Positions 12,277-20,217 of a DNA stretch of 64,000 nucleotides are shown piece by piece (positions within the stretch are counted from its first letter, which is position 1; every line of letters begins with the position of its first letter). The notes beneath the pieces are model-generated. The model was not told where the DNA came from. It worked only from the letters and a program-made list of their open reading frames with translations, and did not search any database. Source of the stretch: Polyangiales bacterium (GTDB taxonomy: Bacteria; Myxococcota_A; Polyangia; Polyangiales; Ga0077539); NCBI GenBank assembly GCA_044229975.1, contig JBGARZ010000005.1, positions 96,001 to 160,000 on the forward strand. Reading direction: 5' to 3'. The position numbers and the translations under genes were made by a program.

Positions 12277-14322
12277 TCAGTCCTCGCCGACGGAGGCCGT
12301 CGAGCGCCACCACAGGCTCTCCAGGCGATCGACGGCGCGGCGCACCAGCTCTCGCGGAGTGGCAGCGCGCTCGATGGTCTCGCTCACCCAGGTCGCCCAG
12401 CGCGGGTCGTCCACCGGCGACCTCACCCGCGCGTGCGCCGCCTGCACCTTGAAGGCGAGCACCACCCGCTGCGCCGCATCGAGCGTCGGAACCTCGATGG
12501 GCTTCGCCTGGTGCAACCGCCGTCGCAGCATCGCCGCGTCCTCCGAGGGGAGCACCGTGCGCTGCTCGGCCACGTCGGCGAGCATGGCGTCGGCCTCCAC
12601 GCGCAGGCGTTCGAGCGCGTCGGGCGTGATCGCGAGCACGACGCAACTGCCGGGGAGGGTTCCGCCGGCGTAGTAGGACAGCGAGCGCAGGGCGGCGCGG
12701 CGCTGCGGGGCCGTGAAGGCGCGGAAGAGGTTCTCGGCTTCGTCCACGAGGATCACCGGCGCGAGGCATCCGTCGATGGTGGCGAGGAGTTCGAGCCAGA
12801 GCTGGAGGCGCTGCCAGGCGTCCTTGCGGTAGGCCGTCGACGCCGGCTTGTGCCGCAGGTCCGACGCGGAGAGGAAGGCTTCGAGCGCCGCGCCGGGTCG
12901 CTTCGTTCGCTTCATGCGGCCGAGGGCGCGCGAGGCGGCTGCGGCGGCGTCACCGGTTCCGTTGGAGACGGCGCCGAGCACCATGCGAACGCCATCGAGC
13001 TCGGTGGCGGTGCGGGTCCATGCGGTGAGGCGGTCGAGGGCGCTGGGCCGACCCGGTAGCGGGAGCACCGACTGATCGAGCAGGCGATGCAGGTGCCGCT
13101 GTGGGTGGCCGAGGTCGGCGTCGAGGTACTCCAGCGACAGGCGAAACACCGGGCGCTTCTCGGCGAGCGAGCGCGCCGTGAGGTGCATGAGCAGGTGCGA
13201 CTTGCCCGAGCCGTACACGCCCGACACCAGCGCGAAGACCGAGCTCTCCAGCGAGGCGTGGCGGAACAGCTCGTCGATGGTCTCGTCGATGCGCTCGTGG
13301 CCGACGCTGAGGCCGACGTCCGGGTCGAGCGGTGGCAGGCCGTGCGCCGCACGAAGGATGGCCCGCAGCCCCGACGCCTCGCCGCGCAGCGCGGGCAGCG
13401 GGATGGGGTAGGTCATCGGCTGCGTCCATCCCGGCGGCGGGGACAGGTCGACCAGCGGACGGTGGGGCGGAGGGAGCGCGGCCTCGGCCAACGGAGCGAG
13501 CACGCGAGAGGCGAGCGGTCGGCAGAGGGTGATGCCGCGGGCGCCGTCGTAGAGCAGGGCGGTGGCGCCGACCCAGAGCTGCGCCGAGACGAGGCCGCGG
13601 GCGCCGTCGGCATTGTCGACGAGCTCGCGGAGCACGGTGAAGGCGCCGTCGCGACGGGAGATGGACAGTCGGGTGAGGGCCTCGGCGCCTTCGAAGATGA
13701 GCACCAGGCCGCGGTGGCCGAGAGCGCGCACGAGGCGCGAGAACTCACCGAGCGCGCGCAGGGCGGTGGGGGCGGTGAGAGCGCCGAGGACGGTTCCGCG
13801 GGTCTCGGCGCGGGAGAGGTCGGTGCCAGAGAGCCACGCGTCGATGCGGGAGGCGGGGCGGGCCGGGCGGCTGGCGGCGTCGAGGTACTCGCGGGTGAGG
13901 ACGGCGAGGTCGCCATGGGCGCCGAGGGGAAGGGCGTCGCGATCGAAGGCAGCGAGCGCGGCAGCGGGCGCGGGGTGGCTGGCGAGGAAGGTATCGAGGA
14001 GGGCGGTCCAGCCGCGGGCGTCGGAGTGGGGCGGGCGCACGGACTGAACGAGGTTGCGCACGAGCCCATCGAGGGCATCGAAGCAGCGGTCGGACATCAC
14101 GCTGACCCGCGCCACGCAGAAGCCGCGCGACCACGCCACGGACGCGAGGGAGTCGAACCACGCGCTCGCCATCGACGCTCGCTTCGCGTTGATGAAGAGC
14201 ACCTCGGCGGCCCCGGTGACGGCGATGTCTTCCATGCCCTGCTGGGCACCACGCAGGAGCGCCGACTGCCACGCGGCCTCGGGGGACTCCGGAGGTTTGG
14301 ACGGATAGGGGGAGAGCGTCAC
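12277..14322 (-). CDS. Tandem BrxD/DUF2791-like P-loop ATPase (degenerate N-terminal copy, intact C-terminal copy)
   Basis: C-terminal copy: SGVYGSGKSHLL (Walker A) and VILVDEAENL (Walker B). N-terminal copy: 'RGFCVARVSV', 'AWLSG', 'GHRGLVLIFEGAE...LRELVD...LYDGARGI...PLASR', matching the BrxD layout. Confidence 0.8.
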   Translation of the reverse strand: MTLSPYPSKPPESPEAAWQSALLRGAQQGMEDIAVTGAAEVLFINAKRASMASAWFDSLASVAWSRGFCVARVSVMSDRCFDALDGLVRNLVQSVRPPHSDARGWTALLDTFLASHPAPAAALAAFDRDALPLGAHGDLAVLTREYLDAASRPARPASRIDAWLSGTDLSRAETRGTVLGALTAPTALRALGEFSRLVRALGHRGLVLIFEGAEALTRLSISRRDGAFTVLRELVDNADGARGLVSAQLWVGATALLYDGARGITLCRPLASRVLAPLAEAALPPPHRPLVDLSPPPGWTQPMTYPIPLPALRGEASGLRAILRAAHGLPPLDPDVGLSVGHERIDETIDELFRHASLESSVFALVSGVYGSGKSHLLMHLTARSLAEKRPVFRLSLEYLDADLGHPQRHLHRLLDQSVLPLPGRPSALDRLTAWTRTATELDGVRMVLGAVSNGTGDAAAAASRALGRMKRTKRPGAALEAFLSASDLRHKPASTAYRKDAWQRLQLWLELLATIDGCLAPVILVDEAENLFRAFTAPQRRAALRSLSYYAGGTLPGSCVVLAITPDALERLRVEADAMLADVAEQRTVLPSEDAAMLRRRLHQAKPIEVPTLDAAQRVVLAFKVQAAHARVRSPVDDPRWATWVSETIERAATPRELVRRAVDRLESLWWRSTASVGED

Positions 14323-14987: not shown

Positions 14988-15539
14988 ATGATCGACAACG
15001 TCGAAGCGCTACGGGCGGCCGTGAGGGACGGGCAGAGTTTCCAGTACGAGCTTTTCTGGGGCCACCGTCCCTCGGCAGACGGGCGCATCGACGGCAAGTG
15101 CCTGTCACAGTGGTGGGCGTGCTCCTTCGTGGTCGACGGGGTGACGTACACGTCGACCGAGCAGTGGATGATGGCGGGCAAGGCGCGGCTCTTCGGCGAC
15201 GCGGAGACGCTCGCGGAGATCCTGGCGGTGACCGACCCCGGCGTGGTGAAGAAGCTCGGACGGAAGGTGCGCGGCTTCGACGAGGCGACGTGGGTGGCCG
15301 CGCGCTTCGAGCTGGTCACGCGCGGCAACATCGAGAAGTTCGGGCAGGACGCGCGGCTGCGGGGCTTTCTCCTGAAGACAGGCGATGCCGTGCTGGTGGA
15401 GGCGTCGCCGTACGACAGCATCTGGGGCATCGCGCTGGGGGCCTCGGACGAGCGAGCGACCGACCCGCTGCGCTGGGAGGGTCTCAACCTGCTGGGCTTC
15501 GCGCTGATGAGGGCGAGAGCGCATCTGCGCAACGGATAG
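14988..15539 (+). CDS. NADAR family protein (YbiA/RibX-like N-glycosidase / ADP-ribose hydrolase fold)
   Basis: FWGH...CLSQW, Y.STEQWMMAGKARLFGD, KKLGRKVRGFD, KF.Q, LVEASPYDSIWGI, W.G.NLLGFALM. Confidence 0.92.
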   Translation: MIDNVEALRAAVRDGQSFQYELFWGHRPSADGRIDGKCLSQWWACSFVVDGVTYTSTEQWMMAGKARLFGDAETLAEILAVTDPGVVKKLGRKVRGFDEATWVAARFELVTRGNIEKFGQDARLRGFLLKTGDAVLVEASPYDSIWGIALGASDERATDPLRWEGLNLLGFALMRARAHLRNG

Positions 15540-15555
15540 GCGCGACGGATGGCGA

Positions 15556-16218
15556 CTACGCCCGTCGGTAGCGCGCGACCCAGCGCCGCACCGGCGGATC
15601 TTCCCCGTCGCGCACATCCTCGAAGGACACCCGCACCAGCGGCGCCTCGCCCAGCGGCGCGAGTTCCTCCGCCGTCAGGGGCCACGGCGGACCGTTGGCT
15701 GCCTCGCTCGCGTCCCTCGCCCGCGCGATGACCAGCAGCGTGCCGCCCGGCGCCACGAGCGATCGCAGCGACGCCATCGCCACGACCCTCGCGTCCGCCG
15801 GGAGCGCCTGCAACGTGTACGTCTCCGTCACGAAGTCGAAGGCACCGAGGTAGCGCGCGGGCGGCGCCAGCAGGTCGGCCACCTCGTAGCGCACCGCGCT
15901 CGTCGGGAAGCGCTCACGGGCACCTTCCACGGCGGTGGGCGCGACGTCGAAGGCCGTCACGTCGAAGCCGCGCCGGGCGAGCTCCTCCGCGTTGTCGCCG
16001 AGGCCGCAGCCCACATCGAGCGCGCGCGTGCCGGTCACCTCGTCGCGGTGCGCGTCGAGCCAGCGCACCATCATCGGGTTGGCCGTGCGGTCGTCCCACG
16101 GAACACCCGTCGTCCCCTGGCGCGCCTCGACGTAGAGCTGCTCGAACCACCCCGTCGGGTTGCCCTGCGCGATAGAGGCGTGGGCGAGCTCGCGGGCGCG
16201 GGGGCGATGGTTGGTCAT
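15556..16218 (-). CDS. Class I SAM-dependent methyltransferase (TPMT/TehB-like)
   Basis: GWFEQLY...VPW, ALDVGCGLGDNA, FDVAPTAV, GPPWPLT. Confidence 0.88.
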   Translation of the reverse strand: MTNHRPRARELAHASIAQGNPTGWFEQLYVEARQGTTGVPWDDRTANPMMVRWLDAHRDEVTGTRALDVGCGLGDNAEELARRGFDVTAFDVAPTAVEGARERFPTSAVRYEVADLLAPPARYLGAFDFVTETYTLQALPADARVVAMASLRSLVAPGGTLLVIARARDASEAANGPPWPLTAEELAPLGEAPLVRVSFEDVRDGEDPPVRRWVARYRRA

Positions 16219-17032: not shown

Positions 17033-18544
17033 TCAACCGGGGTTCGTAGCACCAGACGACGCAGGGGGTGGAGTGGGGGTCGCGACCCGTGACAGTCGGT
17101 CGAGGTGCCACCGACACAACGCATCCAGTGGGAGCGACGTACCCATCCAGGCGAAGGTCGCGCGCGTTGGCGCTGGCAGGTCACCCACGCACAGACCTGT
17201 GCCCTCGAACGCCTGCTCGTTGAGCCGCCACACCGCCGCGGAGAACTCGTGCACCCGCTCCGGCGGGATGCAGCACCGCACCGACGGATCGACGTACGGC
17301 AGCGCATACGGGGCGCGCCCGATGCCACCATCGGGCAGGGCGATCACCAGGCCGCCGTCGTCGGATCCGAGGAGGAAGTCGCGACTGTCGGCCACGTCCT
17401 CACCGGGCTCCTGGGTGAGTGCGAGCCGCGTCTCCCCCACACGCACCGTCGACGGCAGCAGCGCACGCACCGCGTCGAGCGTCGCCCCGCTCACCCGATC
17501 ATCGTCGCGCAGCGCGTAGTCACCCGGAGCGAGCGCGCTCACCTGCTCGGCGAGGGACGCGTAGCCGGGGCGCGCGACGTGGCCGAGTGACTCGTACCCA
17601 CCGGGCGCGAAGAGACGACTCAGCGCGACGTTGCTCGCGGCCGGAAACATCGGGTCGAGGCTGATGACGGGGACGTCGTCGACGGGCTCTTCCCAGGGCG
17701 CGACCCGCACCGCGACCGTCGATGCGAGCAACGCGCGGAGGCTCGACTGGAAGCGCGCGAATCCCGCGAGCCCGAGCGTCCGCACCGCCCGCGCGTCCTC
17801 GACGCGGAGACAGAGACGACCCCGCGCGGGAGGAGACCACACGGGAGCACGGAGCATTCGCGATGAGGCCGGGTGGTCGCCATCTGCCCACAGCACTCGC
17901 GGATGATGGCCCAGGCGTGCGCGCCATCGGTCGAACTCCGTCGACGCACCCGGTCGGCCCACCACCACGCACCCGCCGCGCTCGGTGAACGCCAACGCGA
18001 AGCGCGCGTTGTCCCCGCCGCACACATAGAGCACCTCGACGCGCGGGTCGACGTGCGCCCGGAGGTACGTCCGTAGCCGCGCCGCGACGTCGGTGAAGTT
18101 CACGGAGACGCGGCGGTGGAGGGCTTCCCAGGGGTCGACGGAGAGCCAGTCGCTCGTCGCCACCGCCTCGGCGCACTCGCGCAGGCGCACCGACGCGGGC
18201 ACCGCGCCCGCGCCGCACTTCAGGCGGAGGTAGTCGTCGTGCCCGGGCGAGAGGTAGCCGCCGACCACGGTGTAGCCAGTGGCCTCGGCCGCGTCGCGGG
18301 CGTGCTCCATCATCGCGAGGTGGCCCGCGTGCACCGGACAGAACCCGCCCGTCGAGAGCAGCACGACGGGGCGCTCACCGGAGACGAAGCGCTTCGGTCG
18401 CGGGGTGCAGTGCCAGTCGACGTCGTCGAGCGCGGCGTCGTCGGGGTCGTCGTCGAAGAAGAAGCCGGCGTCCCACACGGCCTGCTCACCGAGCCGGGCA
18501 GCGAGCGGAGCGAGGTAGGGGTCGCGGGCGATCTTCCAGTGCAT
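17033..18544 (-). CDS. Eukaryote-type NMN/NaMN adenylyltransferase fused to a C-terminal PRTase-like domain
   Basis: TGGFCPVHAGHLAMME (HxGH), VVGGYLSPGHDDY, SDWLSVDPWE, YVCGGD. The C-terminal 'YALRDDDRVSGATLDAV' resembles the type I PRPP-binding loop. The start ATG overlaps the upstream stop (TGATG). Confidence 0.78.
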   Translation of the reverse strand: MHWKIARDPYLAPLAARLGEQAVWDAGFFFDDDPDDAALDDVDWHCTPRPKRFVSGERPVVLLSTGGFCPVHAGHLAMMEHARDAAEATGYTVVGGYLSPGHDDYLRLKCGAGAVPASVRLRECAEAVATSDWLSVDPWEALHRRVSVNFTDVAARLRTYLRAHVDPRVEVLYVCGGDNARFALAFTERGGCVVVGRPGASTEFDRWRARLGHHPRVLWADGDHPASSRMLRAPVWSPPARGRLCLRVEDARAVRTLGLAGFARFQSSLRALLASTVAVRVAPWEEPVDDVPVISLDPMFPAASNVALSRLFAPGGYESLGHVARPGYASLAEQVSALAPGDYALRDDDRVSGATLDAVRALLPSTVRVGETRLALTQEPGEDVADSRDFLLGSDDGGLVIALPDGGIGRAPYALPYVDPSVRCCIPPERVHEFSAAVWRLNEQAFEGTGLCVGDLPAPTRATFAWMGTSLPLDALCRWHLDRLSRVATPTPPPASSGATNPG

Positions 18545-20217
18545 CACGAGCGCCCGTCGGGAACCGCTTCGTACACCACGTCGGCGCGGATGATGGTGCG
18601 CTCGCCCGGTCCGTCCCAGCGGGCGACGTCGTGGCAGAGACGGTGGTCGAAGACGAGCGCGTCGCCGCACACCGGGTGCACGGCGGCGATGACCTCGTCA
18701 TCGCGGGTGTCGCGGCTCCAATCGCCGTAGTCGCGCTTGTCGGTGGGGAGGTGCTCCTGCCCGTCGCGGACGAAGCGCGTGGCCCCGCTCGCGGGCGCGT
18801 CGGTCAGATAGAACACCACCGACATCAACGTGCGCCGCCCGTCGCCGTAGTCGTAGCCCGCGTCGTAGTGGCAGAGGTGCCTGCCGCCCGGGTCGTAGCG
18901 CATGAAGCGCAGCAGCGGCGAGAGTCCCACCACGCGCCACGATCGGCGGCCCGGGGCATCCGTGTGGTCGCGCGGGCCCACGAAGCGCACCGACGGGACC
19001 ACAGGCGCCAGTCGTTGCCACAGCGCCGCCGCGAGCGCTGGGGACCAGGCCGTGGCGCGCACCGACCCGACGCCGTAGCTGTCGCGAACGCCGGTGACGC
19101 CGACGGGTTCGGCGCAGCCCGAAGCCGCCATCGCGTCTCGGAGGCGACGCGCATCGTCACGGGTGAGCGCGCCGTGGAGCACCCTTGCGATGCCGGCAAC
19201 ACCCACCACCGTCGTCCACGCGGGCAACCCGACGAGCGGGTCGAGTTCGATGGGCGGCGGGTCCCACGCGCCCGGTATGGCGCCCGGTGGTGGGCGTCGC
19301 TCGGTGCGCCCGGCGAGAGCGGTGTTGTCCCATCCGCCGGGGACGCCACGCGGCATCACGTCGAGGTGCACCGCGGGCGAACCGACGCGGTACTTGTGGG
19401 CGTTGACGGCGTGCAGTCGATCGACCGCAGCGGTCGCTTCGTGTCCCGCGAGCGTGGGGTCGCGACCGAGCTCACGGAGGCGCAGCACGGCCTCGACCAC
19501 GTCGTACGGGGCGCCGATCATGGCCTCGTCGGAGCGGCCGTCGAAGACGTCTCCCGAGGGTGTCGCGTCGACGACCTCAGCGGGGACTCCGAGGCGGAGA
19601 GCGAGCGCGCGCACCTCGGACTTGTGGAGGTCGGAGATGGGCTGGAGGTCGACCATGGCGTCCGACGCCTTCCCGAAGAAGCCGAGGTAGGCACCCTCGT
19701 CGCGGTTGGTGGTTCCGACCACGACGGCGCGGAGGCCGTGGGCCTGGAGGAGGGCCGCGGCCCCGTAGAGCGCGGGCGTGCGAACCACGCTCAAACACTG
19801 CCCCTCCGACCACGCGTCGAAGGCCATCCCCGACGCGCGCGAGAGCGACCCGACGATGGCCGCGAGCCCGTCGGTCAGCGGCGCCTCCCACGCCTCGGCA
19901 CCCAGCGCGGCAGCCACGCGACGACCCCGCTCGGTGGCCTCGGTCTGCGCGGTGGCACCACGACCTCCGACCGGCATGAGCAGCGCCACCACGCGCCGCA
20001 GGGGAGAGCCCTCCAGCGAGGCCACCGCGCGAAGGAGAGCGAGCACCAGCGCCGAATCGACCCCACCGCTGACGCCCACCACCGCCGCGTCGAGGCCCTG
20101 CTCCACGAACCAACGAGCGATCCGTCCGACCTTCGCGGCGGCGACCTCGGCGGCGTCGAATCCCCGCACCACGCGGAGCCGATCGACGACGCGCGTGGAG
20201 GTCTGCCCCTCGCTCAT
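18544..20217 (-). CDS. nadE: NH3-dependent NAD+ synthetase fused to a C-terminal 2OG-Fe(II) dioxygenase
   Basis: AVVGVSGGVDSA (PP-loop), GTTNRDE..LGFFGK..D..VDLQPISDLHKSEV, PS.D...G..DE. C-terminal RFMRY...HYD...SVVFYL...G.T.F...GDALVFDH...H......R (HxD...H...R). No glutaminase domain. Confidence 0.87.
   Translation of the reverse strand: MSEGQTSTRVVDRLRVVRGFDAAEVAAAKVGRIARWFVEQGLDAAVVGVSGGVDSALVLALLRAVASLEGSPLRRVVALLMPVGGRGATAQTEATERGRRVAAALGAEAWEAPLTDGLAAIVGSLSRASGMAFDAWSEGQCLSVVRTPALYGAAALLQAHGLRAVVVGTTNRDEGAYLGFFGKASDAMVDLQPISDLHKSEVRALALRLGVPAEVVDATPSGDVFDGRSDEAMIGAPYDVVEAVLRLRELGRDPTLAGHEATAAVDRLHAVNAHKYRVGSPAVHLDVMPRGVPGGWDNTALAGRTERRPPPGAIPGAWDPPPIELDPLVGLPAWTTVVGVAGIARVLHGALTRDDARRLRDAMAASGCAEPVGVTGVRDSYGVGSVRATAWSPALAAALWQRLAPVVPSVRFVGPRDHTDAPGRRSWRVVGLSPLLRFMRYDPGGRHLCHYDAGYDYGDGRRTLMSVVFYLTDAPASGATRFVRDGQEHLPTDKRDYGDWSRDTRDDEVIAAVHPVCGDALVFDHRLCHDVARWDGPGERTIIRADVVYEAVPDGRS

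Follow-up and report, generated by a model that had tools for sequence, protein, structure and literature searches.

An accessory two-gene module combining a divergent NAD synthetase, an oxygenase, a eukaryote-type adenylyltransferase and a phosphoribosyltransferase-like domain in a Polyangiales bacterium and in phages

The window analysed here, a 64,000-nucleotide stretch of a Polyangiales bacterium (GenBank assembly GCA_044229975.1, contig JBGARZ010000005.1, positions 96,001 to 160,000), contains two overlapping genes, termed gene A and gene B, whose products combine four domains: a divergent nicotinamide adenine dinucleotide (NAD) synthetase, an oxygenase, an adenylyltransferase and a phosphoribosyltransferase (PRTase)-like domain. 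Employing sequence, structure and genome comparisons, we conclude that this pair is a real, conserved and accessory module, apparently undescribed; it resembles the NAD-rebuilding routes of phages in its workings but is a member of neither NARP1 to NARP3 nor the Preiss-Handler pathway. We tentatively propose, at somewhat less than an even chance, that it is a mobile accessory module which restores NAD+ from a pyridine precursor carrying a block or modification, a proposal for which we infer every reaction as well as the order of the reactions. Both open reading frames and their TGATG coupling lie where an initial annotation of this DNA, made from the sequence alone, had placed them, and the motifs it reported were found, namely SGGVDS (residues 50-55) and H450-Y-D452...H529...R540 in gene A, and HAGH (72-75) and LRDDDRVSGATL (345-356) in gene B. 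The features are as follows, in window positions.

18544-20217, minus strand: gene A, 557 aa, in which a divergent NAD synthetase domain of the ammonia type precedes a fused Fe(II)/2-oxoglutarate oxygenase
19330-20217, minus strand: NadE-like domain of gene A, residues 1-296, with Q140 and V144 replacing the usual Asn and Arg, and GFFGKASD replacing GF(Y/F)TKYGD
18547-19305, minus strand: prolyl-4-hydroxylase-like 2-oxoglutarate (2OG)-Fe(II) oxygenase domain of gene A, residues ~305-557, with H450, D452, H529 and R540
18542-18546, minus strand: TGATG stop-start overlap of genes A and B (stop 18546-18544, start 18544-18542)
17033-18544, minus strand: gene B, 503 aa, with a conserved N-terminal arm, an adenylyltransferase domain and a PRTase-like domain
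17825-18418, minus strand: eukaryote-type nicotinamide/nicotinate mononucleotide (NMN/NaMN) adenylyltransferase (NMNAT) domain of gene B, residues 43-240, Z 18.5 to 9iw1
17075-17824, minus strand: divergent type I PRTase-like domain of gene B, residues 241-490, with no Pfam match of its own
17477-17512, minus strand: motif LRDDDRVSGATL of the phosphoribosyl pyrophosphate (PRPP) loop of gene B, residues 345-356, conserved among 217 relatives

That fusion and linkage are conserved in homologues is borne out by hundreds of relatives (513 and 238 for the two fusions; 612 clusters at 50% identity and E <= 1e-30 for a gene-B profile). Among the best 150 representatives, 121 join NMNAT to the PRTase-like domain, 23 carry all four domains, four add the oxygenase to the former two and two add NadE. 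The domains are distributed over one, two or three proteins and occur in several phyla, on megaplasmids, on jumbo-phage contigs (with a terminase in four of the five tested) and in cultured phages, namely Xanthomonas phages X1 and BUDD and Variovorax phage V45v66. Split forms keep the order, as in Cellvibrio, Variovorax, Leptospira, Streptomyces and Paenibacillus, the last four on plasmids of 360-820 kb. A tblastn search of cultured phages with a phage gene-B homologue gave no match, and the link to them was reached through BFVD and the neighbours of NadE. Viral loci with canonical NadE served as a control, 148 in all with some fetched twice, and 147 of them were without an oxygenase, NMNAT or PRTase-like partner; the exception, L229, possesses an oxygenase as well as an NMNAT and could be a divergent member of the module.

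Family NadE is present in 21 of the 25 genome entries that match gene B (one entry is duplicated), unlinked in two Saprospiraceae, and the four entries without it comprise a match to the PRTase-like domain only, a degraded copy and two contig ends. The PRTase-like-only gene is at G117 C11:494278-495084 (L178) and the degraded copy in a Kofleriaceae genome (L031:8013-8783); separately, gene B of Cellvibrio is broken by a stop codon (L029:7107-8567). Phages and defence islands had both been put forward as settings to survey, and the former were found; none of 18 genome loci showed a defence-island setting or a conserved fifth gene. The copy on the Leptospira plasmid (L183:5500-13381) is the sole one beside TIR, Abi and HNH genes, which follow it, while nrtR precedes it.

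The accessory status postulated for the cassette was upheld in its host, a 10 Mb genome that is 93% complete and in which NAD genes were named by motif. Besides a separate nadA and one PncB-like match, it carries a nadD of canonical appearance and four more genes of the NadE family. One of these is short and the other three have a glutaminase-type part at the N-terminus, two of them being close long paralogues; the cassette as the only nadD/nadE of the genome was therefore rejected. The single host match to PF04095 (PncB type) lies on another contig, with none in genes A or B. A NadM-like host gene was also noted at C36:314039.

G000 C20:422121, C19:263691, C29:52810 and C28:104747: further NadE-family genes of the host

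At E <= 1e-20, eight of the phylum's 401 genomes gave a match to gene B, which was partial in three; the gene was detected in four of 41 relatives and in none of eight same-genus genomes; homologues of genes A and B are named from Polyangiales and other Myxococcota. The kinase gene and gmk share a contig with pssA, without the cassette, in four of five same-genus genomes tested and in G365, and in all three same-genus genomes that were read the gap between them holds unrelated genes, which indicates that the cassette occupies a variable slot and that the kinase gene belongs to the backbone, contrary to the suggestion that it was cargo of the insertion. Gene B ends four bases before the start of pssA. 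Genes A and B have a guanine-cytosine (GC) content of 0.88 and 0.86, respectively, at third codon positions, as against 0.95-0.96 in gmk and pssA and 0.90 in the kinase gene, and this lower value is a mild sign of foreign origin. In the same-genus genomes the slot contains a conserved 620-640 aa protein of no known family (L309:6031-12009; L311:1969-7891; L310:1495-3351) and, in two of the three, a 1250 aa cysteine-rich secreted-type protein.

Concerning the individual domains, gene A matches NAD_synthase (PF02540) over residues 39-255 (E 2e-30, Pfam) and scores 101 bits against TIGR00552 (cut-off 63.65), remaining below the equivalog cut-offs of PRK13980 and PRK00768. The N-type ATP pyrophosphatase core is present, with its ATP- and Mg-binding residues retained (SGGxDS, R146, T169, E174, K183, D186, D190, K199 and H274-K275). 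In a comparison of 196 module NadE sequences, many of them close kin, with 60 canonical ones, mostly viral, position 140 is Gln in 99% of the former and Asn in 98% of the latter, while Arg at position 144 is found in none of the former and in 98% of the latter. TKYGD is replaced by GKASD, the changes are also visible against 2e18 and 3fiu, and module NadE is thus without both the Asn/Arg of the canonical N-x-x-x-R-x-R motif and the TKYGD motif. Positions 140 and 144 we take to be sites contacting nicotinate adenine dinucleotide (NaAD). The available portions of PMC6946656 and PMC7196632 contain no residue map for these Asn/Arg positions. In a 58-row tree, a branch with 100/100 support separates the 37 module NadE from the 21 canonical ones, and viral and cellular rows are intermixed (8-9 changes); the bootstrap of this tree is not fully settled, several of its branches are long and four entries (L003, L004, L005 and L229) dropped out. 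Judged from these alignments, module NadE is a branch of its own in which residues of the predicted acceptor site are changed.

The type I loop of the PRTase-like domain, the distinct NadE branch with its altered acceptor site and the redundancy with other NAD genes would be explained equally well if the module made a non-canonical carboxamide dinucleotide, an analogue differing from NAD in its base or sugar, which we regard as rather unlikely but worth weighing. The steps would then be, no less doubtfully, modification of the base or nucleotide by the oxygenase or its radical S-adenosylmethionine (SAM) substitute described below, use of a non-pyridine base by the PRTase-like domain, adenylylation by NMNAT and amidation by the altered NadE; the product, to which we give similarly modest credence, could be a cofactor resistant to NADases, a compound that inhibits them or a decoy signal. 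Carriers commonly have a separate nadD over the cut-off (19 of 25) and a second NadE (18 of 21), and some phages have NAMPT, so that extra plain NAD would be redundant, a circumstance which speaks for an analogue. The module has no conserved neighbour of the exporter or tailoring type, which speaks against one.

The second domain of gene A matches 2OG-FeII_Oxy_3 (PF13640) over residues 437-543 (E 5e-6, 27.7 bits, cut-off 27). Its HxD...H triad and 2OG-binding Arg (H450, D452, H529 and R540) are invariant in 60 close relatives, the iron triad is likewise invariant across 24 diverse relatives, and about half of the nearest Atlas clusters are viral. Among 124 loci, a redundant set, 61 hold NadE, oxygenase, NMNAT and PRTase-like domains and 26 hold a radical SAM enzyme with the same three partners; most of the remaining 37 are short contigs. 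None of the 124 has oxygenase and radical SAM enzyme together, and none has the three partners with neither. The radical SAM form occurs in two kinds of element (~36% and ~52% GC), whose NadE rows fall within the module branch, and a module-family oxygenase was not found in a complete 420 kb record (G408) bearing this form. From gene content and a series of contigs, these elements appear to derive from low-oxygen human microbiomes, and since the radical SAM enzyme replaces the oxygenase there, the oxidation step looks integral to the module. A PhyH-labelled Paenibacillus oxygenase was considered as a second replacement and rejected, as it belongs to the same family as the module oxygenase.

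This exchange speaks against the quite improbable reading that the module simply amounts to a non-orthologous version of the Preiss-Handler pathway (nicotinate to NaMN to NaAD to NAD), with the oxygenase or radical SAM enzyme directed at a protein, for instance hydroxylating or activating a pathway enzyme, or having a regulatory role. Three of the four domains do match the three activities of that pathway, and the oxygenase is nearest to prolyl 4-hydroxylases. Phage clusters of the pathway are moreover known, as pncB-nadD-nadE in jumbo phages (PMC11662467, in the available text of which an oxygenase is not mentioned) and as the canonical PncA-PncB-NadD-NadE cluster of Bacillus phage G (gp275-283), which lacks an oxygenase. 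However, the same slot is filled by two unrelated radical chemistries, the NadE acceptor site is altered, and canonical phage NadE loci, both in phage G and in 147 of the 148 control loci, do without the oxygenase.

Distant relatives of the radical SAM enzyme were traced at 13 loci, one of which lies inside a pncB-nadE-rSAM-pncA cluster and another 3-6 kb from nadE, pncB and nrtR; the first of these placements implies that such an enzyme can feed the ordinary NAD pathway. As an observation in its own right, a MoaA-like radical SAM family with 926 relatives is found within the phage pncB-nadE-pncA cluster (L301:5086-9486) and near nadE-pncB-nrtR (L305:2-8843), and it may be an NAD-pathway enzyme of its own.

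The first domain of gene B is a eukaryote-type NMNAT, closest by sequence and fold to true NMN/NaMN adenylyltransferases. A CTP_transf_like match over residues 66-152 (E 6e-5) is the only Pfam match of gene B, which scores below the bacterial NadD cut-off, and the best PDB matches are the Arabidopsis, Chaetomium and human enzymes (sequence E 7e-23), with a Foldseek E of 9e-11 to Arabidopsis 9rpk and, against Chaetomium 9iw1, a root-mean-square deviation (rmsd) of 3.0 over 192 aligned residues at the Z given above. The HxGH nucleotidyltransferase fold and the pyridine-pocket and SS/ST motifs are all present, and H72 (95%), H75 (96%), D178 (99%) and S228 (96%) are conserved. In contrast to the eukaryotic enzymes it most resembles (9rpk, 9iw1 and human NMNAT1/3), this NMNAT is fused to a PRTase-like domain and an N-terminal arm and resides in bacteria and phages. 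Its retained pyridine-pocket motifs, N149-x-T151 and the aromatic F186, argue against an NAD analogue as the product.

The C-terminal domain of gene B has a confident predicted fold (pLDDT 95.9) and contains a PRPP-binding loop, an acidic pair followed by TGxT, of which D348 (96%), D349 (99%), G353 (98%) and T355 (94%) are conserved in 217 relatives. A 60-member profile searched against the PDB found APRT at E 0.02, 23 of 25 rows being type I PRTases or PRPP synthetases, and these also made up most of the top rows in VIA-align, at Z 5.0-5.6, the range of common arrangements (1vdm, rmsd 4.2 over 115 aligned residues; 3qw4, rmsd 2.5 over 72). PF00156 was matched by five of the 60 members (best E 0.002), and in the ESM Atlas PRTase-named clusters score 0.81-0.82, which is a lead only. 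The one viral protein that Foldseek matched comes from Acinetobacter phage ME3 (E 3e-7) and is uncharacterised. Taken together, the profile, VIA-align and Foldseek results indicate that the PRPP loop is real and conserved, while a full type I PRTase fold, with hood and flexible loop, is likely but weakly matched; the four domains originally proposed are thus confirmed for NadE, oxygenase and NMNAT and more faintly for the PRTase. The usual substrates of type I PRTases are purines and pyrimidines, which favours an NAD analogue. Some gene-B relatives bear, by eye, extra ends: a GNAT-like tail, a 220-residue tail of no known family and a J-domain-like head (P0313, P0327 and P0369).

NAD-related neighbours were seen at several loci. 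The module lies in a Cellvibrio operon with a TonB receptor, PnuC, NadR and NAMPT, NadR/PnuC-like genes occur at L048, NadM and NAMPT adjoin the module in Xanthomonas phage X1, and NrtR (194.6 bits, below the cut-off of 400) is directly upstream in the Leptospira plasmid. The NrtR, PnuC, NadR and NAMPT neighbours, together with the pncB-nadE-rSAM-pncA locus, point to ordinary NAD rather than an analogue. NAMPT or PncB is present elsewhere in two of four phage records tested (G402 and G404), and since X1 and these two thus have NAMPT or PncB of their own, the module is not just their means of salvaging nicotinamide. As a minority signal, then, the neighbours point to pyridine chemistry and to a job outside ordinary salvage. 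An ADP-ribosylglycohydrolase lies inside one phage copy and a Macro domain beside the ME3 copy; with NADAR, such ADP-ribose-processing genes near some loci lend something to a very unlikely reading, in which the substrate is a complete but damaged dinucleotide or an ADP-ribose adduct that the module repairs or recycles, or the product is a nucleotide serving another purpose such as nucleic-acid modification or signalling, and the PRTase-like domain merely binds PRPP or ribose phosphate. The part of that domain which aligns well with PRTases and PRPP synthetase spans only ~70-80 residues, as this reading would have it, but the PRPP loop and a further Asp/Arg set are 90-99% conserved, as in a catalytic site, and no DNA-modification partner is conserved beside the module. 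The ME3 copy (L190, NC_041884 218403-221833) comprises a stand-alone PRTase-like gene and a very divergent NadE, and adjoins the Macro gene and a Ter cluster.

Returning to the rebuilding of NAD+ from a blocked precursor, the oxygenase step, which we place first and not last, would free a pyridine carboxylate, the first candidate precursor being N-methylated nicotinate or nicotinamide, by oxidative demethylation. The PRTase-like domain would then transfer ribose-5-phosphate from PRPP onto the carboxylate, after which NMNAT would add AMP and the divergent NAD synthetase the amide, in either order; given its altered acceptor site, the synthetase may amidate a mononucleotide and not NaAD. In phages the module might counter an NAD-depleting defence where plain nicotinamide salvage is blocked, while in this myxobacterium it could be a horizontally acquired scavenging or anti-toxin aid.

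Several observations weigh against this proposal. The synthetase is without the Asn and Arg kept by 98% of the 60 canonical NadE, and a non-NAD acceptor fits equally, while the closest solved relatives of the oxygenase are protein prolyl (4-)hydroxylases (E 3e-6). The type I PRTase match is weak (Z at most 5.6; no Foldseek match of the model in the PDB below E 0.001), and the nicotinate and nicotinamide PRTases known to us are type II. Demethylation of an N-methylpyridinium is chemically harder by radical SAM than by 2OG hydroxylation, and 11 of the 13 distant radical SAM loci are without NadE nearby. An NAD or ADP-ribose gene was detected by a phmmer screen near only ten of the 124 loci, several of which were the source loci of the queries, and phage ME3 has the oxygenase, PRTase-like and NadE parts while the NMNAT half was not found in its genome.

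Depletion of NAD is among the chief means by which bacteria defend themselves against phages, and three counter-routes of phages have been described. It is conceivable, although we would not count on it, that the module is a fourth and chemically new NAD countermeasure between phage and bacterium, its parts either making an NAD analogue that withstands SIR2/TIR NADases or blocks their action, or undoing an undiscovered defence that chemically blocks nicotinamide. If so, its oxygenase, or in the absence of oxygen its radical SAM enzyme, would work with a remodelled NAD synthetase, an NMNAT of eukaryotic type and a PRTase of a new family. No described NAD route includes an oxidation step or a PRTase resembling type I. 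Identity of the substrate would reveal a new NAD precursor or damage product, perhaps with the defence that generates it, or a natural NAD analogue, and the module consists of two soluble proteins with intact motifs and is widespread, including in cultured phages.

Among known systems, the Preiss-Handler pathway (PncB, NadD and NadE), including its jumbo-phage clusters, likewise groups a PRTase-type step, a HIGH-family adenylyltransferase and a NadE-family amidase in large phages, but the module has a type I-like PRTase instead of PncB, a eukaryote-type NMNAT, NadE of a separate branch and an oxygenase or radical SAM enzyme always attached. NARP2 (Nampt and Nmnat) shares with it a PRPP-using step followed by adenylylation, is phage-borne and adjoins the module in X1; it employs a type II NAMPT without NadE or oxygenase, and one phage can have both. 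NARP1 (Adps and Namat, Adps having a PRPP-synthetase-like, type I fold) and NARP3 (PnuC and NadR) are also compact phage-borne NAD routes, but they are without NadE, oxygenase and eukaryote-type NMNAT, and the module is without Namat, PnuC and NadR. The initial annotation was correct that the parts differ from NARP1 and NARP2: no NAMPT-family domain was found in the module with Pfam, so that neither part set is complete although the NMNAT of NARP2 is present, and the NARP3 parts, given as the PnuC transporter and the NadR kinase-adenylyltransferase in the available text of PMC13464706, are absent too. The NMN synthetase route of Francisella (NadE* then NadM; available part of PMC3376133) likewise pairs a NadE homologue of changed acceptor specificity with an adenylyltransferase, but 3fiu retains the Asn and first Arg, and the route has no oxygenase or PRTase-like partner. 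In their available portions, PMC7824862 lists NAMPT, NadM and NadR as phage NAD systems and PMC9503650 contains neither NAD synthetase nor 2OG. No description of the module was found in PMC open access or bioRxiv, a scope outside which lie supplements and most subscription papers, nor in the available parts of PMC13728456, PMC12801897 and bioRxiv 10.64898/2026.01.28.702374.

Elsewhere in the window, a NADAR-domain gene (15003-15539, plus strand; Pfam E 9e-49) lies 1.5 kb from the cassette. Its membership of the module is unsupported, as it is present at one of the 124 loci and relatives have their NADAR gene at other places. A TPMT-like methyltransferase gene (15556-16218, minus strand) lies between it and pssA, and 12277-14322 (minus strand) encodes a protein of 681 aa whose ATPase domains resemble BrxC/BrxD (E 5e-23) and which is syntenic in one same-genus genome.

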